A stretch of 63,982 bases of DNA, counting the filler, from Basidioascus undulatus (Eukaryota), in assembly GCA_000826855.1 (NCBI GenBank). It is 4 parts of 4 records of this genome, joined end to end, with 100 filler letters (N's around TTAATTAATTAA, not from the genome) between each part and the next. Parts side by side here need not be neighbours in the genome. Positions count along the whole stretch, not along the records: positions 49,684 to 63,982 come from JTLS01000743.1; 3 more parts are not named here. One strand, given 5' to 3'. A model generated the notes under the pieces. That model was not told the origin of the DNA. It searched no databases and saw only the letters and a program-made list of their open reading frames with translations. Shown one piece after another: positions 1,641 to 63,982 of this stretch. Within the stretch, counting starts at the first letter, position 1; each line of letters opens with the position of its first letter. The translations under genes were made by a program, and so were the position numbers.

Positions 1641-4520
1641 GGAGGATAGACACTTGGACTTGGATGATCGCACTTTGGTTTCGCCACCTCTGTACTCGCA
1701 TTGGTGTCTGTTTGCCTTGGAGCATAGGAGTTTTCCTTGCTTGCCTCGCAGCGAGCTCTCAAATGCCACAGTATTGTGTGGAAGCGAATGCTGCGGTAAC
1801 ACTCCTCGTTTGACGAACTGCGGCTGTCCTTCCTTCGGGGCCGACGATGCTCGATGCGCTTACATTTCAGGCAATCTGGTTTGTGTAGGTCGATATGTCA
1901 GGCGGGCTGTGCTCGAAAGCGACTGCACTGTAACGGCTATTTCCAATCGCTTTCAGCCCGGCATGTTCAAAGCATGGGGAACAGCTTTCCAGCCCCCGGC
2001 GACATGTCATCATCTGCGGCCTAGAAGACTTGATACTGAGAGAGCATGACACTTTGTGTAAGAAAAGAACTCACCCGTTTGTTTGTGCGTCCGGCAACGT
2101 GCAACTTGCAACTTGGAAACGTAGCCAGCAGTTTGATGCTGTTCCCGCGCCGGGTGGCAATAAGACACCCTTGGTATGAACATTTTCTATGAACTAGCGT
2201 AAACCAAGCAGTGAGCCGTATCTTACACCAGGGAAGGAACGTGTTTGCAGTCTGGGATTGAGGAAGACGGATGATGCGGCGGACACGACCATGGTCCTTC
2301 CGTTCAGGATTCCTTAACGACCGCCCCTGCGGAGCTGGCGAGCGCATGAGTTATTGCAAATTTTAAATGATTACATGCCCAACACGGTTATGTACCTTCA
2401 CTGTACCAGCCTTCAGTGTGCCCAGCAAGCACGCTGCTCGCCTTGCCGCCAGCCAGTGAAGGACGAGCCTGGAAAACGAACAAGAGGTCTAGACTGGACA
2501 AATTATAACTAACAAAGCTTGACCCCCCGATCAACCGAGCCTGAGAAAGGACGTTACCCTGTTCCGTGTTCGCAGAGCAACCGGCAACTTGAGGCTCATC
2601 CTGCTCGTCGCACGTTTGTAAGCCCTTTCTCATCATGATTGGATTTATGCTGGTGCCATCACAGGCTCTCCTCCCTGGGGGTTCTGACTGGCTTATGAGC
2701 TTACGGACACTCCGTGACCGGCGATCCGACCGGCAGCTGCGAATTAGGAGTTAAGCAGTCGGGCAGCTGGGCGGATAGGGATAGGGTGGGAGTAACGGTC
2801 GCAGAAGGGGGTCTCCTAGGGTGTTGATATGGAATAAAAAAGAGTGAGTGTCCAACACAGTGGGTAGTCCGTCGTAATCCGCCCCGGGCTGTCTGACGTG
2901 GAGAGTGGATGAGGTGGAGCTGAGCTCAGAGACGGCCGCCATACAGTCGGACCGTCTCCGCGAGCTTGGAAGGTGTTATAAAGGGAAACAAATACCAACT
3001 ATCAGAGGCTGGAAGAACATTGTGCCGATGGCTGGCGTAAAACTCCTTGAGCTATCCGTTCCAGTTGCCTTCCGTCCACGCAGCGAACGTTGACACATCT
3101 CGGGAATGAGGAGCATCGGAACATTGGACTTGCTCTCAAGGATTACTGGAATTAAGTGGGCCCACCAAGTGTAGGGAGTACGGCTTTCGTCCCCTGCGTT
3201 CGTGACATCTCATAGGCCTGCGGGCCTTGGGATTCTGGTATTTATTGTTCCCGTCTCGCTTATTCCTAGGTTAAGTAATACTTTATTGTGCTATCTATAT
3301 ACGGGTAACTTCAATTTCAACTCTGCCTCCTAGTTGGGAATGCTACCTCTCCCCCCCCCACGCCGGCACCTGTAAAATGCCTTCCAGTCGTATCTTCCAT
3401 GCGCAGTGGCAAGCTACTCGGAGGAGATACATTTTGAGTTGGCATCCGAACTGTTAACCCTCGGCTGTGGCATCGATGCCGCTCTGTCATTCCTTGACAT
3501 TGGTTTATTGATCCTGTACATCCGAAGATGGCGAGAGTTGGCTCAATACTTATCTTATCACCGCTTTATCACTTGTGGGTCCTCTGTCAGCATGCTCACG
3601 AGCACAGTCAAAGCACGGCGCTGTGGCCTGCATAGCCTCCTGCCGTGGCTTAATGCAATTGCCCTGTGAGTCCGCCGCAGTCGCTCCTGGCCTGCTTCTC
3701 TTGAGTTCGTGCAACATGACAGCCTTACTTGCGTTTCATCGTTCAGATGTCATAAAATGCGCATAAGCGAACGGCGCCCTAATCAATGAGCCCCGTTCAG
3801 TGTTCCTGAACAGCATTGCCAGTGCGTGGCCCACCCGCAGCGTGCATGGCGGAGCCGCACAACTCGTGAGTGGGCTCATCAGGACGGAATGGAACATTGC
3901 CGTGATTCCCTTTGTGATTTTCACATGCTTGCTACGAAATTTCGGCGTTTTCTCCATGAGGAAGAAGACCCAAGAAGGTCCACTTGAGGTCCACCGGGCT
4001 TTAATGTGTTGCCTTGCCTATGGGATGGTCCTAGACGACCCTTCGTTCATGTGTGTGTTTAATGCTTCACGGGCAGGATGTATAGTGCTTCGCTTTTCGA
4101 AAAAAGTCTTCCATGTCACGGTTGAGATGGACAAGGCGTGGGGGTGTGTTGTGTGACTGACCAGCTTGGACCGTGACGAGCCAAGTCGCGGTGCGGTGCC
4201 CACGGCGGTTTGGCACGCCTTCCATGTCACCATAACCTTCAAATCGGCGCCCGCCGTAAGCACCGAAGCGCTTCTCCGACGCCATCCGTGTGTCGCGGAA
4301 AGTTCCGACTGCATGGCTCAGGGAGGCGGCGAAGACTGCACCGTGCACGCGTAACGAAATTTACGTGTGCCCGCCCGCCGTCGCCAGTTCGAACGATATA
4401 CAAGTGCAGCTGCGCGCTGCGATGCCTGCCTCCTTTATCTCTTTCAGTATTTTCGTTGACCGCTTCACTGTCACCAATCCATCACCCCTCGAGCGCGGTA
4501 TTACCCCCCGCTCTGCCACT

Positions 4521-38757: not shown

Positions 38758-41700
38758 ATGCGGCCCCCCTCGGTCGCGTCTTCGACGTGCTCGGGCTGGA
38801 TCGACTCTGCTGCCGAGTCGGACGACGAGGGCTACCAGCGCCGGCTCAAGCGCATCAGCCTGCTCAGCGACGAGCTGGACCCGCTGGACAGGCTCGAGAG
38901 GGAGCATGAGGAGGAGCAGGGGCTGGTCGAGGGCGCGAAGAGCACGCGGAGCAGCGCGATGAGCTTGCCTAGCAAGGAGGGCACAGACGAGGACGCGGTC
39001 ATTGGCGAGGCGATACCCGCTTACAGGTGCATCCTGATTTCCCATATATATGGTTTGTTGCAAGACAGCTTACGTGATAATGAATTTGGATGAAATTGAG
39101 CAGGACCCGCTCAGAGTCCATCGATCTCCGCTCGACAGCGTCTTCCTCCCCCTCAGCCTCAGCCTTCCCGCGCACCCACCGCCCTCTCGCGTCAACATCC
39201 ACAGTCTCCACCCTCGAATTCCCCACTCCCCGCGCCGAGTTCGCCAAGCCCGCCCTGCAGCTGTCCTCCCGGCCCTCGCCGCTCGCACGCCAAGTCCCCG
39301 ACGACGTCCCGCAGGAGATCGAGCTGTCGGAAGATGACGAAGACGAGAGCAGCGACGAGGAGGCGGGCGTCGTCCTCCTCGAGCGCGAGCCGGGGATCGA
39401 CGGCCCCCAGAGTCCGGGCCTTGCGCTGCCGAGTCCTGTTCACCGAGCGGATCGCGAAAGCCATGTCGACCCGTTCCAGGGCAGACCGCTGTCCATCCCT
39501 TCCTCGCCCCCTGCCATCGACGCTCCTCCCGAGCTTCCTCCACCCCCGCTGCCGGCCAATCCCCATTCACGACCACCCCCTCCTCCCCGACCACCGCGCT
39601 CGCCCTCACGGCTCTCGCTCGTTTCCTCTGCGCACTCTTCCTCCCAGCGCCTCTCAATCGCCTCCCAATCCGTCACCTCCCTCACCCTCCCTCCCTCCAA
39701 CTCTCTCTCTCCCGTCGCGAATCCACCATCTCCTCTTCCCGCCCTCGCACGCTCACGTTCCAACACGCCGCCCGAACCCCGTACCCCGCCCGATGTCGGC
39801 CAGGGGAACACCTCTGCTACCACGAGCCTAGACGACCTCGCCGCTCGAGCCGTACGCTCGTACGACGACCTCCGGCGGGTTCCCTCTCCCGCAACATCTT
39901 TCGATGACCTTCACCACCCGCACCCGCACCTCCTCACTCGCAAATCTTCCACCCTCACCTCCACCACGCACAACTCCGACTCCCTCCGCTCCATCATCGA
40001 GCAAGCCCACCCTCCCCAACCGCCCGCCCCGCCGCCAATAACCGAGCTCCCGCAACCGCAACCGCAGCCGCAGGCCCAGCGGCGTGACCGACGGCACCGC
40101 GACTCTGCCCTCACGTTCGGGTCGATTGACGTCTCGTCCTCCCCGCGCATGCCCGATATCTCCTCCCCACGCCTCTCCGGTATCGCAACTCCGCCGCGCA
40201 ATAGCGCCACCTTGCGGTCAGGCCGCGTGCGCGCGAGCACGGCGAGCTCGCAGGACGCGATCCCCGAGGCGCTGCAGCGCGGGCTGAGCATGTCGACGAT
40301 GGCAACGGTCAACACGTCTTCGCACTCGCACGCGGGCGCGCACCTCAGCCGCTCATCCACCTTCCTCACGAGCTCCGGCCTCTCCCACTCCAACTCGTCC
40401 TCCGCCCGAAGCAGAGCGACAACGTTCGGCCGCCGCATGCCGCCCGTCACGCAGAGCATGGCTAGCTATCCCGACCCCGAGCCCGGCTCCAACCGCTCGT
40501 CCGGTGTCCCCCGGCAGGACTTCTTCGACTGGGACGACTCGTCCTCCGAGTGCTCCCACGAGCACTCGTCCCCCCCGCCATCCGCCATCAGTGGCGGGAG
40601 CGCGCAGAACCCGTTTGGGGACTCCGCGCGCTCGCGGAGCACCAACTCGCTCGGCCTCAGCAACTCGTCGTCCTCTGCGCGCACGCGAAGGTCGACGCTC
40701 TCGTCCCCGGCGAATGGCGCGTGGCTGAGTTTGGCCAGTCCGGCCGTGGGGAGCTTTTCAGCCGCAGGGCAGGTGTACGGGCCGGGAGGGGCGGCTGCGC
40801 AGGGAAGTGAGATCTTCTGGGATGACAGCGATGAGGACGAGGCGGCGGAGGAGGACGAGCCGGTCAGCCCAGAGATGGTGAGTTCGTTTCAGCCGTACCG
40901 CCCCCAGTCCGGCTGTTTATCTTACCCTCTGGGCGGACCAGTTCCTCGAGATGTACGCCTCCACCGAAGGCAGCGTCGACCTCGGCCGGCACCACTCGCG
41001 GATGTTCAAGCTCGAGCGATCGCTCGGGCCCGGCGCAGCCAGCGCATACCGTGCCTCGACCACGCTCCCCTCCGCGCTCACGTCCGCCCCGAACCCCATG
41101 GCCGGCCCGACGCCCTACCCGCGCTCGACGGCTCCGCGGCCCACGTCGCACCCGTATGCGCCCGGCCGCCCCTCAGCGAGCATGCCGAGCCTCCTCTCGT
41201 CGTCCGTCTCGAGTCCCGACCTCCGCACGAAGACGAGCTTCTCGAGTACGGGAAGCGACAGGGCACTACTTGCGCTGGAGAGGGAGAGGGGCAAGCTGCA
41301 GAGCGTAGGGGAAGTGAATGAGTTGGAGACGACGAACGAGATTCCGGAGGAGGAGAAGAGGGCGGCGCTAGCGCGGGTACGCGTCTTTTCTGCTTTCAGT
41401 AAGCGGAGTGGATGCTGACGCTGCTGGGATTGGATAGACGCGCAAGCTGCAGTCCCTTCTCGGCGAGTCCCTCCCGGCAGGCGCGATCCGCACTGGCGTC
41501 GGGCACGCGCACACGCAGTCGGAAGAAACCATCCACGCCTCCCCGCCCTCGACGCATCGTCGTGCCCTGCGCTCAACCGACACCACTCCGGCGCCCTCGT
41601 CACGCTCGAGCCTCTTTGGTCTTCGCTCAACGGGCGTCAAGTCCCCGCCGCCGCCCTCCCAGCGCGTCACGTCCCCGCCGCCGCTGCCGCCATCGCAACG

Positions 41701-44550: not shown

Positions 44551-45756
44551 TCAGACTGAACTCCCGCCATTCCGCAATTCCTTCAGCATCTGCTTGCAGA
44601 CACTTTCGACCCCCTCAAGTGCGTCGCTGCCCAATATTGTGCAAGTTGGGGACGTCCTCGCCCTTCGCCAGATCACAACTTCGATGATCGCCCCGGCCAC
44701 GCGTTTCGGGTCGCCGGGCGCCTGTTCGTAGATGTGCGCCCACTCGGCGTACTTAGGCTCAGGAAGCGGCTCGTACGCTGAAATCATGTTGGCGGCTACC
44801 TTCCCGTGTTCTCCCTTTAGAGTGGTTAATGCAATCAGTAAAGATCCATGAGCAGAGAGGTTACAACCGCGCACGATGTGGGTCCGGAAAAAGCCTGCGG
44901 TACGAGAAGAGGATCTCAGCTAGGTTCCCATTTCTACAAGACCGTCTTTACAAGACGATCTTACCAGGCTCGAATCCACAACCTTGATACCGCACAGCTT
45001 GAGCTCCCCCGAGGCCCGCAGAAAACGCTGGTGTTGGTCGTTGCTTTGCTGTCAGCTGCTGGCTCAGCTTCAATGATGCAGCAAACCATGTACGTACCTC
45101 GTAAAGCGTGTTTGGCTGCGCTGTATCCGGTAGCAGGAGACGAGGGGAACCAGCTCAGCATAGTGTTGATGTTGAGAACCCAGCCCGACTGGCGAGCGCG
45201 CATATGCGGCAATAGGACGCGAATAATACTGACTGTAGCACGGTGCGGCCACAGAATCTTTTCATCCCGGGTGTCCAAAACTGGCCAACAAGCAGAAATG
45301 GTGCCTACGGTGTCCAAACACGTCCGTGTCGAAAATCGCCGCGGTCTCCTCATGCCTGGACCCGCCACCTCTCAGACCAGCTCACGTCCGCTCGCTGAGT
45401 ATGGAAAGAAAAAAGCAGGCGTTGTTGACCGAGACACCGACGTGGCCATATACCTAGGTGGCTTCCGAGACAATCTTCTGCAGTTCAGCGGCCGGGGCCG
45501 TGACATCCAGTCGCAGCGGGTGCGTGCCGCGCGCGACGAGCGGTTCAAGAGTCTCGGGTTTGCGTGCAGTCACAATAACCTGGTTTGCCTCGTCCAAGAG
45601 GGCTAGTGACAAGGTTGAGGAGCTTGCAGTGTTTTAGGTGGTAGGTGGGGAGAAGCGTGCCGGAGGCAGAATGAAGGGAGAACACACTTAGTGCAAGTGT
45701 CTGACCAAGCCGGATGAACAACCCGTGCTGAGCCATACGAGAGAAGAAGAGGACAT
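44551..45756 (-). pseudogene. Classical short-chain dehydrogenase/reductase pseudogene
   Basis: LVWLSTGCSSGLVR, VIVTARKPETL, LRLDVT, in-frame TAG 45454-45456 before VYGHVGVSVNNA, LLPHMRARQSG, YSAAKHAL, PGDPKRVA, ILGSDA. Confidence 0.85.
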
Positions 45757-49583: not shown

Positions 49584-49683
49584 NNNNNNNNNNNNNNNNN
49601 NNNNNNNNNNNNNNNNNNNNNNNNNNNTTAATTAATTAANNNNNNNNNNNNNNNNNNNNNNNNNNNNNNNNNNNNNNNNNNNN
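49584..49683. other. Assembly gap with TTAATTAATTAA linker
   Basis: 100-nt N/linker block. Confidence 0.98.
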
Positions 49684-50962: not shown

Positions 50963-53735
50963 AAGGGGATCTTGTCGGCCAAAGAATACATCTTGAAAGC
51001 GTTGTCGAAGTTTGGTCAGTTGTTGTCTGCAGCTTGCCCGGTTAAATCCGTTGAAGCTGGAAGTCGCTTTGAGTCAGATTGAAGCTCAGCAATCGAGCAC
51101 AGTCGTGCGCAGTCGAGCAAAGTTGCAGAAAAAGAGAGTCCGTTTGTGATCGCGACCTGGCGGATTGCGTTCTGCCAGAAGTGCACAAGTTCTCTATTGA
51201 TCCGGAACAAACAAGATGTTGCTAAGCCAAGAACTTCTTTGTTGACGTCCTGACTGAAGTTCAGTATCAAGAGCGCTGACAAGACTGGCAAGAGTGTCGT
51301 GTGGTGCATTTACCTCCGGCGATGCAGCGTTTCGCAAGGCCTCACTCCCACGGCCCACCTCACATCTGCACCCGGACAATCATTGGCTATCGAAGGGAAA
51401 TTTCAGCGACCCCCCGATGCTGACTATCTTGGCGCAGAATCCCAGCCTCATTCAGCTTATCCAGCTTGCGCTCAAGTCTCTGCGGTCTTCGGGTCTTAAC
51501 GAGAAGCGCTGTTGTTCCTACAGCCGCCTTTCGTTTAGTGTCCCATCTTGACGAACGGCCGGGTATTTACAAATAAGTTGGCCACTCTCTTTGGGCTGGC
51601 ATCACTTCCAGTCGTTATTCAACGGCCGTCTGCCTTACCAACGCTCACAGTGCAACGCTCGACACAACCGCCGCCGCACACGGATGATACCGGCAAGCCA
51701 CGTCCATCGACTGTACTTCATAAACGTAAGTCCTAGTCCTTCCTGACAAGGAAAAGAGTAGTGCTGCATTCTCGCGCTTTCCTCTTGCGGTCAAAATGCT
51801 TGCGGTTACTCGATGCAGGCAAACAGGTCAACACTTTCATAGGGTTAGGGTTACAATGCATGCGAAATAAGGGAAAGGAAGGTACATGCATCAGCCGACG
51901 CCCGCAGCCCTCACGCTCCGCCATCCCAGCACCCCAAAGGAGCATCCAGGCGGTGTGAAGCGCGCACGTCATCGAGGCAACCACCCGAAGGAGGCACAGA
52001 AGTTCTCGGCGGAAGGGAGGGGGATTGCGAATCTTCGTCGCCCGTGTAACGAGGTGGCAGATGTAAATCTACGAGACTGGATACTTCCTATAGAATATGA
52101 TCCTATGGAGTACCGTCATGAAGAAAGGGGACGGGTCGTGGGGCGAAGGGTATTTATGGGGCAGAGTAAGGTTTGGTCCTGTACAGTTCTGGCAAGGTGC
52201 GAACGCAGCTCGTTAAGGTTCAGCGTCGTTCTCCGGCCTCCCCTCGACGATCGTGAGTAACGCGGCTGTTTCTCTCAGCAGATACGCTGATTGGAGGACT
52301 AAACCACATCCATATTCACATAGCAACCCTTGATGTGCTGGAACCTCGGAAAGCGGCGCGGCGGACATGATGCTTTCTTGCCTTACCCGCGTCACACCCT
52401 CACCTAGTCCACGGCTGCCACCCACACTGCCTAAGCCGACTCTGAATCTTTGTTAAGCCGCATTCAAACAGGACTCAATACCGAACTATGACCTCTTCGC
52501 TCGACCGCTAATTTTCGGGCATTTTTGGGTCGGGCCTCGCAGCTCTTCCAATTCTTGGTTCCAACTCATTCGGTCTTTCTCTTGCGTTCACGCAGGCGTA
52601 CTGACTTCGACTTTTCCTTGTTCGGCCTTTCAGCGCCTCTTCTGAGGGTCAACACCTTTCATCCTCGACTCCTTGGAGCTTTTCGCCATTTGCTCAACTG
52701 CGCGTCGGCGCGGCCTGTTGACCTCTTTGTTCATCTCCCTCCGTCGCCTCAGCTATCCATGCACATCCATGGGCCTTCTATTAAGCACTTCATTTATTTA
52801 AAGCTCAGGCTGCCGAACTCGCTCTTTCCCCGATCAAATTCCTGGTCCAGCTGCACTCTGCGGCCGTCTTCTCTCGCGTCTAATATCGACGCGGGACTCC
52901 TCCTTTCGCACCCAAGCTGGTCTGGGCCGGCGCTATCCACATCCGGAGTGATTTACACCGTCGCTCTCTTCGTATTCTATAAGCCGGCTTCTCGCTGCTT
53001 GTGCAGAGTCGCCACGTTCGCTACCACAACTTGGCAGCCAATGCCTTCCCTAACCCGACTACTCGACGCTCGACCTCCCCCTCCCCATCACTTCGCCGTC
53101 GTCACCACCCAAACTCTTCCGGTCCTACAAGCGCTTGCCCTCTCACCGCCGCCGCTGAGCGACCCGCGTCGCCTAATCGTCTGCTTGTGAAGCTGCGCCA
53201 AGGTCTCTTTTGCACTGATTTTTGGGAGGGTTTCTTGCCTGCACCCTTGGTTCTCAACAGTACTGTTGCACTATCTCTATTCACCGACATTGATTGCTAA
53301 AATTCTGAGCATGTTTAACACAACGCGGATTCGAAACTGTCGCGCTGCCGCCATTAATTGATCCGCAGAACAAACGCTTCCTTAATCAAGCGGTTTACAA
53401 AGTATCCCTGAAACGTCAAATGTCGCTATATGTCTTGATGTTAATTATTTTTAAAGTTTTAAAATGAGCCATGGTCAAGATCAGCGCTGTCAGGACCCCG
53501 GAGGCACTGCGGTGCTTTCACTCTTTCCCCAACAGCCAAGAGCCGCTATTTGAGAAACACATGGCAAAACTCCTTTGTTCTGTAAGGCAAAGCAACGGCG
53601 ACATTCCTCGGGGGCAGGCGTGAAGGGGCAGAGTTCGAGACATGACCTGCGAGTGAGCCGCACTTTACCACAGGCCTCTACCACAGGCCTCTCTTCTCCG
53701 CACTCCCTCATCTTGAGACTGCTTAGATTGTCCAA

Positions 53736-54563
53736 ATGTCTTCCGTTCACAACCAGGGTCTCATTGAACGGTTTAATGTGGGACGTGAGCGCCTTCGACG
53801 TTTGCTGTCGGCGCCGTACTTTCACCACACTCTCTTGTTGCTGGTGAGCCTTTCGCTCACATAGTGGAGTCCCAAGTGCTCTGACGAAACGCTCAAAGTT
53901 TCTCCCCCAGATCACGTTTGACACCATCTTGTCTTTCACGGAAGTCGCCTATGTCTACCTGCGTGACCAGTGCGCCGAGTGCCGGCATGAAGATCCCACC
54001 TGGGTGGAAGTCATGCACGCCCTCTCGCTCTGGATAATCACACTGTTCCTGATCGAGGTCCCTCTGGAGCTTGTAAGTAATGAATTTAACCATCTGGCGC
54101 TCTAGAACTCACTCGTATGAGGTGCAGATCGCGTTCGGGACAGCGTTGTACACCGCAGGCCCGCACTGGTGGCTCCACATCCTTGACACGTTGCTCATCA
54201 TCACGAGCTTCATTCTCGAGATTGTGCTAAAGGTGGAACAAAGATAATGAGGAGCATAATAAATATCCCAAGTCTCACTTCTGTTTTCTCATCAGGGTCG
54301 CGAGTCGGACCTTGCTGGACTCCTCATCGTACTTCGACTCTGGCGCATCGTGAAGCTAGTGGGAGGTGCAGCAGTAAGATTGTAGCTGCTAAGCTTCTGG
54401 GAGACAATTAAATCTGACTAAGCTTTCACTTAAGGTTGGAGTTGGGAAGGGGGACGAAGAGCTGGCTGAACGAATAGAGCATCTGGAGGCTGAGCTGGCG
54501 GCGATGCGCGAGGGTGAGCGGCTTCAGCGAGCGGACGAAATGACAGGCGGACCACCCAAGTAA
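53736..54563 (+). CDS. Hv1: Voltage-gated proton channel Hv1 (HVCN1-like), 193 aa, 5 exons
   Basis: Exons 53736-53843, 53911-54072, 54128-54232, 54296-54373, 54435-54563 splice in frame; S1 FHHTLLLLITFD (Asp), S2 LFLIE, S3 HILD...SFILE, S4 LLIVLRLWRIVK, C-terminal coiled coil; no pore domain. Confidence 0.92.
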
Positions 54564-55545
54564 TTGCTGGAGGTATACATATAAATATGCCCGATATTAC
54601 TCGTTCTACCAGGCGAAGCGATGAGAGCCATGACAGTGGCAGTTGTCCCTCTGAAGTTGTCCTTCTGAAGTTGCTCGATTGCCGGGTTGTAGAGTGCCGG
54701 CTGTCTGAGCTTGCATATCAAGCATCACCTGAGCATTGTCTAACTCAAACTTACTCACAGAAACGGTCCTGCTCGCAGCGTGCGAATAGGCCGTCCAACT
54801 TATCTAGTAGGCGGTGGATTCGCAGTCAAGCCAGTTCCCTTACCTTTCCTTACCTGGTTCGACCGTACCAGTTCTCGGAAACGATGTACACACAGACCAA
54901 CTACATTCGCACTGGATGCGGTTGACTGCAGTCAGAACTCAGACTGTGCATATTTGGCGCTATCTAGCAGTGTGACGAGGTGATAGGCACTCACCCGGCC
55001 GTGTCTTCTCCTCGAAACGGCCGAGACGGGGGCCGAAAGATTAAGAGGCATGGGCACATGCCGATTTGCCGCGCGGCAGTCGGGAGATCATGGTCGGGAT
55101 CCGGATGTGGAGATTATTGCGCACCGCCAGGGGAAGGTCCGGGACCAATCGATGTCCAACAGAGGGCATAAAACACAAACTCTCTCCTCGAGCTTGAAAG
55201 TTTGAAGTACGGTCGGTTGGACACAAGGTCGTGAGGACTTCCTTGACCACAAACCGCACCTGCATGCTCTCCATTGACTGCGGTTGTCCATAGCTTGTTT
55301 CCCTCGAATTTGAGTGTTCGACATCGGGCGCCGGAGTGTGCCGAAGCCATTCACGGCACTGTAGCGGCGTTGGTTGGCCACCATTGCTGCCAGTCATCCC
55401 GCATGCCTCATCATCCCAATTTAAGCATCTCGTGCGGGGTTATCGACGATTTTGAGATGGACGGCTGCAGCTCCTAAGCTCTCGGCCACCATCATCTTTC
55501 CCTGGTGTAACATCCTCCCCGCTTCGCCCACTTCCCACAGTTCAC

Positions 55546-59739: not shown

Positions 59740-61182
59740 ATGATGAAAGCCATCGCCCTCTCCTCCTCCGCCTCCGGCCCAGATGTCCTTCACGCCGTGC
59801 AGCTCCCGGCCCCCACTCCTGGGCCCAAGGAAATTCTCATACGCCTCAGGATAGTATCTCTATGAGAGGTCTTGCTTTGTACGCTCCCAATTCTGAGCAC
59901 TGAGTACGGAGGTGAGCCTCGCAGGAACCCTCTCGAGATCAAGATCCGTCAAGGCACCTGGGCTGGGGGCCAACTTCCCGTACGCTCTTTCCTCCTCCGC
60001 CTCACCGTCATTGACGATTTTTTACATTTCCACCCCCCTCCCAGCCCGGCTCTGTACTCGGCTTCGATCTCTCCGGCACGATCGTCTCGCTCGGGTCAGA
60101 CGCGCAAGCTTCACGCTTGATTCCTCCATTCCAACAGGGTCCAACGCCGAGTTCGCCGTGATGGATTACCGCGCTGTGGCCCGCAAGCCTGAGCCGGTGG
60201 GCTGGGCGGAGGTCGCCGCGATCCCCCTTGTGGGGCTTACGGCGTGGGAGATGTTGGTGGAGGGGATGCAGGTTAAAGGGGGGGAGGGGGCGTGGTTGAT
60301 CGTCAACGGTGCGTGAGGTTTTCTCTCCATCTCCGAATGGAATTGGGAAACTGATTATGGGAAGGCATACAGGTGTGGGAGGCGTGGGATTAGTTGCCAT
60401 CCAGCTCGCTCGTAACGTCCTGGGCGTGAAAACAGTCATTGCGAATGCGTCGCGCCCCGAAACGTCTTTTTGCCTCCTTCCATCCTCTACCCATCATCAC
60501 TCACCTTTCTTAATCTTCAGAGTCAATCACGTCCGCACCCTCGGCGCAACGCACACGATCTCGCACCGCTCGCCGCTGAAACCTCAGATCGATGCGCTCG
60601 GCCTCGAGGAGGTCAAGTACGTCGTAGTGCTGGCGACGATTACGAAAGACCTTTTGGATCAGATATGGTCCTCTCCCACCTCAACATGTTAACTTGTCGT
60701 AAGCTTATGAGACGGGAAACAGGCCATCGGCCTCCTCGATCCCCGCGGGAAGATCGGACTGGCGGTGCAGGGCGCCCCGGACGCGTACGGGGGGCTCGGT
60801 AAAGCACAGGGCAAGGGTTTGTCCTTCCACTGGGGTACGTATTTCCTCCGCCCAAGATCCAGCAAGTTACTGAACAAGTTGGGGATCAGGATTCGTGTTC
60901 ACCAAGCAGCTCTTTTCCCCGGAGGTGCACCTCGCCGAGCAAGGCGCGGCGCTCGCGCAGCTCGCGCACTCATGGACGAAGGGAAGATGCGGCCGCGGAC
61001 ATCGTGACTAGGCGGATGCCGCTGACTGTTGCCGGGCTGAGGGAGGCGCACGAGTGTGAGTTTGCCTGAGATCGATGACTGGCGGGGAAGGGGCTGACGC
61101 GCTTGTGGCGGAACTACCAGTTTTGGAGAGTGGCAAAGCGTTCGGGAAGATCGTGTTGGGTCACAGCCCAGGTCTCGCATGA
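59740..61182 (+). pseudogene. Zinc-type alcohol dehydrogenase-like / quinone oxidoreductase (MDR superfamily), disrupted
   Basis: MKAIAL, PAPTPGPKEILIR, NPLEIKIR, VLGFDLSG, GSNAEFA, AAIPLVGLTAWEML, NGVGGVG, ASRPET, LREAHE/LESGKAFGKIVL; missing the GDEV segment, frameshifts near 60110 and 60965-61000, two intron donors read AT. Confidence 0.8.
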
Positions 61183-61915: not shown

Positions 61916-63055
61916 CTATCGAGCCCATCCGACGCCCCCACTCGTGTCCCCGTCCGCCACCCTCCCGCCCTCGGCCTTCTCCGCCGGCGCGTCCTCGACG
62001 AACCCAAACTGCCCGCGGTTCCAGTGCTTCTGCGTGCGCTTGTTGCCCGCGCCCTCGCCGTAGAGCTTCGCCCACTTGCGGAGGTCCGGGAGGGTGCCCA
62101 TGTCCTACAGGACAGGAAGGGTTGGGCATGTGAGCAGGACAGGTGATGGGGAAGGGGAGAGAGAACGCACCTCGGACGTCGACGGAGACACCTCCTTGAG
62201 CGCGCGCTCAAAGTGCGACATGGCGAGGACACGCTGCGGGGCGGGCGGCTTGCTAGTGCTCTCGGCGCTTGTGCTCTCCTGTGCAGGAGCAGCCCCGGCC
62301 TCTGGAGCGGCGGGAGCAGGCGCCTCGTCTGCGAACGGCGCAGGACCGACCTCCACTGCCTCGGCGGCAGGCGCAGGCGCAGGCTTCTCCGCCTCCGCCT
62401 TCGTCTCCGTCTTCTTCTTGAGCCACGGCACGTCGACGTTCTCCTTGAGCGCGATGAGCGCTGCAGAGACACATAGCTCTGCCGCCCCACCCGCATCACC
62501 CAAATAAGCCTAGGTCCGACACCGCCTCGAGAAAGAGGGGAAGGAACGCACGCTTAAGGTCCGAGCCCGAGAAGTACTCGGTGCGCTTGGCCAACCCCGC
62601 AAGGTCCACGTCTGGCGCGAGGTGCTCGTCCCGCAGGTGGATCTCGAGGATCCTTTGCCGGTCCTCCTCGCGCGGGAGGTCGACCAGGAGGCGCCGGGGG
62701 AGACGGCGGAGAAGGGCGTCGCTACCACGAGCCACCAACGCCCCATGTCAGTTGTTACCAGCCCAGCAGTGGAAGAGCGAGGACGGGGGCAGGAAGAACG
62801 CACTCGAGGTCAAACGGCCGGTTCGTCGCGCCGATCATGACGATCCCGCCGCGCTCGCGGTTGTCCGACGGGCTGTTCAGCCCGTCCAGGAGCTGGAGCA
62901 TCTCGGTCACCTGTGGTACCCACGCCATCCTTCATCAGCTCCTACTCCCATTGCTTCCCGCCGGAGAAAGAGAGAGCGGGAGGACCGACACACCATCTTC
63001 CGATGCGCCTGATTCGAGCTGTCTGACCGCCCGGACGAGCGGCCCGAGACGAGCC

Positions 63056-63086
<31 letters not shown>

Positions 63087-63982
63087 CGCGAGGCGGCGCG
63101 CGAGCGTGAACATCGCGCGGACGAGCTTCTCGCTCTGTTCCATTCCCCATCACCATTCCCGTCAGTCCACCTGCCAACCAACGAACCAATAACCCGGAGG
63201 CGGAAAAGCCGAAAACGAGAAGGGAAAGGACGAAGGGGAGTGGGAAGAGAATGGGGGGGCCGGGGCGGGACCAGAAGGAAGAAGGTAGAACATGAAGCTG
63301 TTGAACGCACCTCGCCCAAATACATATCCAACAAATCCGACGGCTTGATCGAAATCATCCGCGCGCCGCTCTCGCGCGCGAGCGCGCGCACCACAAGCGT
63401 CTTGCCCGTCCCCGGCGGGCCGAAGAGCAGCGCGCCGGTCGTCGAATGGTTCTTGAGCACGCCTGAGGCGAATGCTTGGGGGTAGCTGGTTTGTCCCAAT
63501 GCATCAAGTCAGTTCTCGGGAACCTCGAATTCTCGTACTTGGAAGGGGGAGGGTGGGGTGAGGAGGAAGGGGGGAAGGGGAAGAGTGAAAAGGCGTACAG
63601 CAAAGGAAGGGACACGATCGACCGCAGTGCGTCCGTCGTCTGCTCCGGCAAAAACGCATCCTCAAACGTCGTCCCCACCCGCCTGGCATCCACAATAGCG
63701 CTCAACAGTCTCTGCTCATGCTGCCCCAGATCCTCAGCCGCCTTCACGCGCTCCACCACCTCATCTTTCTCTCCTTCTCCCCCGACGCCGCCCTCCGCAC
63801 CATCGACTGCGTCAAGCTCGGCCGCAGCCAAAGCAGCCGCCGTGCGCTCGCCGGTTGCATTCGCCCATGCGCGCCGCGCGGCATGCGAGGCGCGCAGGGT
63901 TGCCCAGGCGCGGGAGAGGGTGGGGAGGGTGATTGGCTGGGAGGGGGAAAGGGAGAGGGAGAGGAGGGAGAGGGAGAGGATG
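61916..63982 (-). CDS. Msp1/ATAD1-like AAA+ ATPase (long fungal form), 5' part outside the window
   Basis: [13 protein letters not shown] (Walker A), [14 protein letters not shown] (Walker B), [26 protein letters not shown] (SRH), [30 protein letters not shown]. Confidence 0.92.

Follow-up and report, generated by a model that had tools for sequence, protein, structure and literature searches.

Positions 53736-54563 (+) of the window, that is, the whole stretch of 63,982 nucleotides of Basidioascus undulatus DNA analysed here (filler included), hold an intact five-exon gene, whose introns split a single 193-aa frame. Translation of the coordinates exactly reproduced the model of the sequence-only reading, with five exons, four GT-AG phase-0 introns and a 193-aa product. 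The exons measure 108, 162, 105, 78 and 129 nt, every one divisible by 3, and the introns 67, 55, 63 and 61 nt, all of them GT...AG and in phase 0; the frame ends with the stop codon TAA at 54561-54563. The features of the locus, with the predicted roles of the residues in an Hv-type voltage-gated proton channel, are the following.

53653-53726 (+): upstream GT...AG stretch, intron-like; non-coding for the channel protein
53736-53843 (+): exon 1, Met1-Leu36; N-terminus on the cytoplasmic side and beginning of S1
53844-53910 (+): intron 1, 67 nt, GTGAGC...CCCAG, phase 0
53911-54072 (+): exon 2, Ile37-Leu90; S1 with Asp40, S1-S2 loop with C57-x2-C60-x-H62, and S2 with H72, F82 and E85
54073-54127 (+): intron 2, 55 nt, GTAAGT...TGCAG, phase 0
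54128-54232 (+): exon 3, Ile91-Lys125; S2-S3 linker and S3 with D110 and E121
54233-54295 (+): intron 3, 63 nt, GTGGAA...ATCAG, phase 0; four in-frame stops
54296-54373 (+): exon 4, Gly126-Ala151; S3-S4 loop (R127) and S4 with R139, W141, R142 and K145
54374-54434 (+): intron 4, 61 nt, GTAAGA...TTAAG, phase 0
54435-54563 (+): exon 5, Val152-Lys193 and TAA; Gly-rich S4 linker and short heptad-like C-terminal helix

No intron can be read through, because in-frame stops are found in all four. A branch-site-like motif, CTNAC, precedes the 3' end of each intron by 16-26 nt, and the GC content is 0.569 in the exons (GC3 0.675) vs 0.431 in the introns. The locus yields only stop-to-stop ORF fragments of at most 85 aa, and the gene is therefore missing from ORF lists; prokaryote-style lists of this kind miss small, intron-dense genes encoding eukaryotic membrane proteins.

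The junctions were evaluated in a splice test, in which one junction at a time was moved within +/-45 nt and only in-frame, stop-free variants were kept (n = 38). These variants were scored with an HMM built from 122 homologues, the protein of the window being left out. The five-exon model obtained the top score, 185.9 bits, and the 37 other variants were rejected for their lower scores against the same HMM, the runner-up reaching 178.7 bits. The profile score of this predicted model lies far beyond chance, and its MAFFT alignment to the homologues is ungapped at all four exon junctions. When the whole window was searched by tblastn with the spliced protein for a second Hv-like copy, all other matches had E >= 0.49. 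A scan for bacterial promoters and terminators, irrelevant for a eukaryote, stayed at chance level.

Gene structure in relatives and surrounding sequence

Three metagenome loci encoding homologues (L001-L003) were used for the comparison of gene structures, their introns being deduced from GT/AG sites and the reading frame. The S1-to-S4 region is one exon in all three. Intron 1 of the window, which precedes the S1 Asp codon by three codons, is shared in position and phase with L001 and L003, and none of the three loci has introns at the places of introns 2 and 3 of the window. The deduced Hv introns in L001 and L003 (~2240-3020) are two only. Since the homologous loci have only two introns, the lineage of the window has two extra ones in the voltage-sensor region. 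The last deduced intron of the homologous loci lies 8 nt upstream of intron 4 of the window and is in phase 1, an offset that looks like intron sliding or independent gain.

The intron-like stretch at 53653-53726 had been proposed as a possible extension of the N-terminus or of the 5' UTR. The N-terminal extension did not hold: there is an in-frame TAG at 53724, and an upstream ATG at 53642 joins out of frame. Relative to the aligned homologues, the model is ~20 residues short at the N-terminus, and its first residues align with the conserved motif that opens them. The stretch may represent a 5'-UTR intron. A tandem duplication of 13 nt x 2.1 lies inside it (53666-53692), and another of 14 nt x 2.4 is located ~80 nt past the stop codon (54641-54673). 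At the other end of the protein, where the sequence-only reading noted a coiled coil, there is only a short heptad-like run, whose best register places hydrophobic residues at 7 a/d positions within the final 43 residues; compared with the aligned homologues, the C-terminal helix is ~8 residues short.

Pfam was run on 54 long stop-to-stop ORFs around the channel gene, and the families found near it, adh_short, ADH_zinc_N and AAA fragments only, include none with a functional link to the channel. The adh_short fragment lies at 44964-45371 (-) with E 6.1e-6, just under the cut-off; the ADH_zinc_N fragment at 60300-60689 (+) with E 1.8e-4, also under the cut-off; and the AAA ATPase fragment at 62945-63508 (-) with E 4.6e-11, above it. 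These fragments are probably exons of intron-split neighbouring genes. The longest ORF thereabouts by far, a stop-to-stop ORF of 745 aa at 39084-41318 (+), has no Pfam family at E <= 0.001. An antisense stop-to-stop ORF of 152 aa at 53490-53948 (-), which overlaps exon 1 and intron 1, matched no Pfam family and is interpreted as a chance ORF in GC-rich DNA. A run of N at approximately 49585-49640, ~4 kb upstream of the gene, places X in ORFs on both strands and is read as an assembly gap.

Homology and conserved residues

The exon-4 ORF (40 aa) was used as the search seed and returned two fragments, one of which, P0002, carries the source name 'voltage-gated hydrogen channel 1'. P0002 led to 130 longer relatives at E <= 0.001, 120 of them listed. 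Among the matches listed, many are voltage-gated hydrogen channel 1 (UniRef) or carry PF00520, and the organisms named are all mushroom-forming fungi, of genera that we take to belong to the Agaricomycetes. The homologue sample (n = 122) is biased, as it was seeded by one fragment and has mushroom-forming fungi only among its named organisms.

Compared by phmmer with the sampled fungal Hv proteins, the spliced protein matched 122 of 122, with a top score of 151.9 bits. Against P0007, a Suillus luteus protein of 223 aa, it scored 143.9 bits, with 77/163 identities (47%) by blastp. SlHv1 is the 223-aa S. luteus protein used in the fungal proton channel recordings of 2021 (PMC7910559, in part), and P0007 is taken to be this patch-clamped channel, judged by species and length (223 aa). 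The links of the window protein to Pfam and to solved Hv1 structures are transitive, through P0007, which matches mouse 3wkv with E 1.5e-16 and human 5oqk with E 3.4e-14. By this route no non-Hv sensor came nearer, TPTE2 (E 1.7e-3) and Ci-VSP (0.3-0.6) falling far behind Hv1. P0007 and P0043 are barely above the Ion_trans cut-off and match the voltage-sensor part of the profile only; the homologues cover positions 2-105 of its 241 positions.

Four hydrophobic stretches were located at ~29-49, 67-97, 105-127 and 130-149 of the 193-aa protein, which is collinear with whole fungal Hv proteins, in agreement with the voltage-sensor-only architecture proposed earlier. Homology supports the reading of the locus as an Hv-type voltage-sensor-only channel gene hidden by introns.

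Searches with single exons yielded less. Pfam gave no family at the cut-off for single exons, and an ArfGap candidate for one of them (E 0.016, 15.7 vs 28.7 bits) was rejected as merely reflecting the CxxC. With exon 2 the word-index search returned no candidate, and the PDB search with this exon alone no match. Exhaustive phmmer with exon 2 gave 2 matches, the sole true Hv relative being P0123 (E <= 1e-3, 41% identity); P0124 (433 aa, with Cys/His-rich repeat units; E 3.8e-4, 6 stretches) was rejected as a spurious, composition-driven match to the loop.

The motifs quoted in the sequence-only reading were all found: S1 '..ITFDT..' with Asp40, the loop DQCAECRHED and S4 RLWRIVK. Human columns were assigned via two alignments, the window protein with P0007 and then P0007 with human Hv1, and the human numbering was counted along the 5oqk chain with the S1 Asp set to 112, its number in PMC10377628. 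This numbering is self-consistent, because the count gives I127, H140 and H193 (PMC7910559, in part) and also Trp207, a residue so numbered in the title of another paper. The transitive alignment via P0007 places the main residues as follows.

Asp40: human Hv1 D112 column
Glu47: human Hv1 E119 column
Arg54: human Hv1 D123 column
Cys57: human Hv1 I126 column
His72: human Hv1 H140 column
Arg127: human Hv1 H193 column
R139, W141, R142 and K145: human Hv1 R205, W207, R208 and R211 columns

Conservation was counted in a 123-row alignment of the 122 homologues and the window protein. The column of Asp40, the S1 selectivity-filter position, holds Asp in 113/122 homologues, and that of Phe82 holds Phe in 120/122. 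Glu85, Asp110, Glu121 and Arg139 occupy columns with the same residue in all 122 homologues, Trp141 and Arg142 columns with the same residue in 121 of them, and Lys145 a column with Lys in 120. The human residues F150, E153, D174 and D185, which we take to mark the charge-transfer centre and counter-charge columns, correspond to F82, E85, D110 and E121. Human S1 Asp112 is the selectivity-filter residue, and an acidic S1 residue together with the S4 Trp sets Hv apart from Ci-VSP, which is described as lacking both (PMC10377628, in part). Both discriminators are carried by the window protein.

The S4 segment reads R139-L-W141-R142-I-V-K145, in accordance with the signature RxWRxxR/K. The RxWRxxK form noted in the sequence-only reading is present; it is the normal fungal motif and no special feature of this locus, with Lys general at the third S4 charge of fungal Hv proteins (PMC10377628, in part), and so this Lys is no novelty.

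A tree was built by FastTree (LG+gamma; 122 rows >= 150 aa, 215 columns). The terminal branch of the window protein measures 1.90 substitutions per site vs a median of 0.18, and its median distance to the homologues is 3.17 vs 1.50 among the homologues themselves; its nominal sister is P0023, with support 0.77. The mean blastp identity to the homologue set is ~43%. Of the 36 columns with a conservation of at least 95%, 29 are unchanged in the window protein, and each of the other 7 carries a conservative change (D>E, L>V, I>V, P>A, F>L, T>S and E>D). Retention at this level, with conservative changes, speaks against decay and in favour of a gene under constraint, in a lineage other than the one sampled. 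The P>A change is Ala100, which stands where Pro is found in 122/122 homologues; in addition, Ile91 stands where Trp is found in 101/122.

Outer-face cysteines and histidines

The loop with CxxC and His noted earlier is present, but only part of it is unusual. The column of Cys57, the first loop Cys, holds Cys in 120/122 homologues, and this residue is therefore family-wide; what sets the window protein apart is the second Cys and the loop His. The S1-S2 loop (53-67 in the model) has exactly one Cys in 118/122 homologues and two in 2/122 (as CGC and CDC), and CxxC occurs in 0/122. A loop His is found in 19/122, mostly right after the Leu that ends S1. A further outer His had been missed, H72, at the human H140 column, where His occurs in 0/122 homologues (Ala 63, Ser 50, others 9); His one residue past this column is found in 55/122. 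As far as these alignments indicate, Cys60, His62 and His72 are particular to the window protein within the 122-homologue sample.

The extracellular Zn2+ site of animal Hv1 has His at both the H140 and the H193 column (PMC7910559, in part), presumably together with acidic residues of S1 at E119 and D123. In the window protein this site is incomplete: of the four positions, those of H140 and E119 are filled, by H72 and E47, and those of H193 and D123 are occupied by Arg (R127 and R54). Because Arg occupies the H193 and D123 columns, and the canonical site is thus incomplete, an effect of Zn2+ or of the redox state is put forward here as a hypothesis, and any effect of Cys60, His62 or His72 on the channel is likewise hypothetical.

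In the available part of PMC7910559, the Zn2+ block of the recorded fungal channels is weak (<20% for SlHv1 at 100 uM, and <60% for AoHv1), which is attributed to their having no His at the H140 and H193 columns. The same source, in part, locates the conserved loop Cys close to human I127 or at it, in the presumed interface between subunits, and describes the S1-S2 loop as dominating the voltage range and kinetics of fungal Hv channels.

Two proposals can be made for the additional residues. Cys57-x2-Cys60-x-His62, together with His72 at the top of S2, may form a putative Zn2+ site, which, if true, would make the channel sensitive to Zn2+, unlike SlHv1 and AoHv1. Alternatively, Cys60 may cap the conserved interface Cys57 in the same subunit, as a putative disulfide; subunit coupling would then be altered, and the opening voltage range would follow the extracellular redox state, since the activation range of fungal Hv channels is determined by the S1-S2 loop. 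The acquisition of an extracellular switch of either kind, for metal or for redox state, seems to us rather unlikely.

Interpretation and comparison with known channels

At the level of sequence, the gene structure, the membership in the Hv family and the retention of the core residues can be regarded as demonstrated. We propose, with high confidence, that the locus is an intact, intron-split fungal gene and that it encodes a voltage-gated proton channel of the Hv type, within the Basidiomycota-like (SlHv1-like) group. The Basidiomycota affinity is suggested by the S4 variant, the linker and the 47% identity to SlHv1. We infer that the gene is expressed and that its product conducts protons and dimerises.

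By homology with characterised Hv channels, the protein would consist of a four-helix voltage-sensing domain without a separate pore domain, so that protons would cross the sensor itself. Asp40 in S1 would act as the selectivity filter. The gating charge would be carried on S4 by R139, R142 and K145, together with W141, and F82, E85, D110 and E121 would provide the charge-transfer centre and the counter-charges. The channel would open by depolarisation and an outward pH gradient. The Gly-rich linker and the short C-terminal helix probably pair two subunits, and the conserved loop Cys57 would be placed where S1 ends on the outer side, in the presumed interface between subunits.

Other explanations of the locus have to be weighed against this one. 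The product might be an Hv-derived voltage-sensor-only protein that does not conduct (TMEM266-like), or a diverged paralogue with another role. The long branch, the ~43% mean identity to the sampled fungal Hv proteins and the unusual outer-face residues W77, W104, W105, C60, H62 and H72 would fit this explanation, as would the report that some Hv-annotated proteins have lost channel hallmarks (PMC10377628, in part). We consider it very improbable: the hallmarks lost in such derivatives are kept here (the S1 Asp, the S4 Trp, R1, R2 and K3), all 7 changes at highly conserved columns are conservative, and the window holds no second Hv-like copy. The same long terminal branch could also belong to an unexpressed or decaying copy, that is, a young pseudogene still looking intact, and so could the P>A change at position 100, in a column invariant in the 122 homologues. 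Yet the 193-codon frame is open over five exons, with canonical GT-AG introns and branch-site-like motifs; the GC3 of 0.675 vs an intron GC of 0.431 suggests constraint at the codon level; and 29/36 near-invariant columns are kept, with the 7 changes conservative, so that the probability left to decay is very small.

It is also conceivable that the gene encodes an Hv channel and that the model is wrong in detail, by an extra 5' exon, another start or another intron 4 junction. The model tops the 38 in-frame variants (185.9 vs <=178.7 bits) in spite of the weak intron 3 donor (GTGGAA) and of the last intron of the homologous loci, 8 nt upstream and in phase 1. The intron-like GT...AG stretch at 53653-53726 and an N-terminus ~20 residues short of the aligned homologues would leave room for an extra 5' exon or another start; against these stand the in-frame TAG at 53724, the upstream ATG at 53642 that is out of frame across that stretch, and the alignment of the first residues with the motif that starts the homologues. 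An error of this kind is improbable in our judgement, and the five-exon gene for an SlHv1-like proton channel is the reading retained for the comparisons below.

Voltage-sensing phosphatases (VSP/TPTE) and TMEM266 share with the window protein the four-helix voltage sensor with S4 arginines. They differ in having no acidic S1 residue, no S4 Trp and no proton conduction, as described in the available part of PMC10377628, and the window protein is without the phosphatase domain of VSP/TPTE.

Animal Hv1/HVCN1 channels, represented by human 5oqk and the mouse chimera 3wkv, have the same four-helix, sensor-only architecture. By transitive alignment, the human residues D112, E119, H140, F150, E153, D174, R205, W207 and R208 are matched in the window protein, and D185 is present as Glu; the differences are Lys at the R211 column, Gly at the N214 column, and Arg at the H193 and D123 columns. 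Identity between fungal and human Hv proteins is 20-29% (PMC7910559, in part).

The first description of fungal Hv channels dates from 2021, and no more than two are known from recordings (PMC7910559, in part). AoHv1 of Aspergillus oryzae, of the Ascomycota type, has the RxWRxxK S4 in common with the window protein, and it has a short coiled coil at the C-terminus, to which the heptad-like run of the window protein may correspond. Its S4 is of the R.WR..K..E form, and it is described as being without a linker between S4 and the coiled coil; the identity between AoHv1 and SlHv1 is 25.7% (PMC7910559, in part). Having both the G variant and the linker, the window protein groups with the SlHv1 type, AoHv1 being compared here by its description.

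The closest of these known systems is SlHv1 of Suillus luteus (Basidiomycota), with 47% identity over 163 aa, ungapped junctions and the S4 motif R.WR..K..G in both proteins (PMC7910559, in part). Both also have the conserved S1-S2 loop Cys, the Gly-rich S4 linker, the C-terminal helix, and Arg at the human H193 column. On the other hand, the window protein has a shorter N-terminus and a C-terminal helix shorter by ~8 residues, and it has Ile91 for the common Trp and Ala100 for Pro. It adds Cys60, which produces the CxxC, and the loop His62, and it has His72 where SlHv1 has Ala86 at the human H140 column. As hundreds of orthologues are annotated, one more Hv gene is not news in itself. The modest value of this gene lies in natural variation within the S1-S2 loop region, which is the region highlighted for fungal channels in the available part of PMC7910559: since neither the second Cys of the CxxC nor a His at the H140 column was seen in the 122 homologues, the window protein would offer a natural test case for the published hypotheses on the loop and Zn2+.
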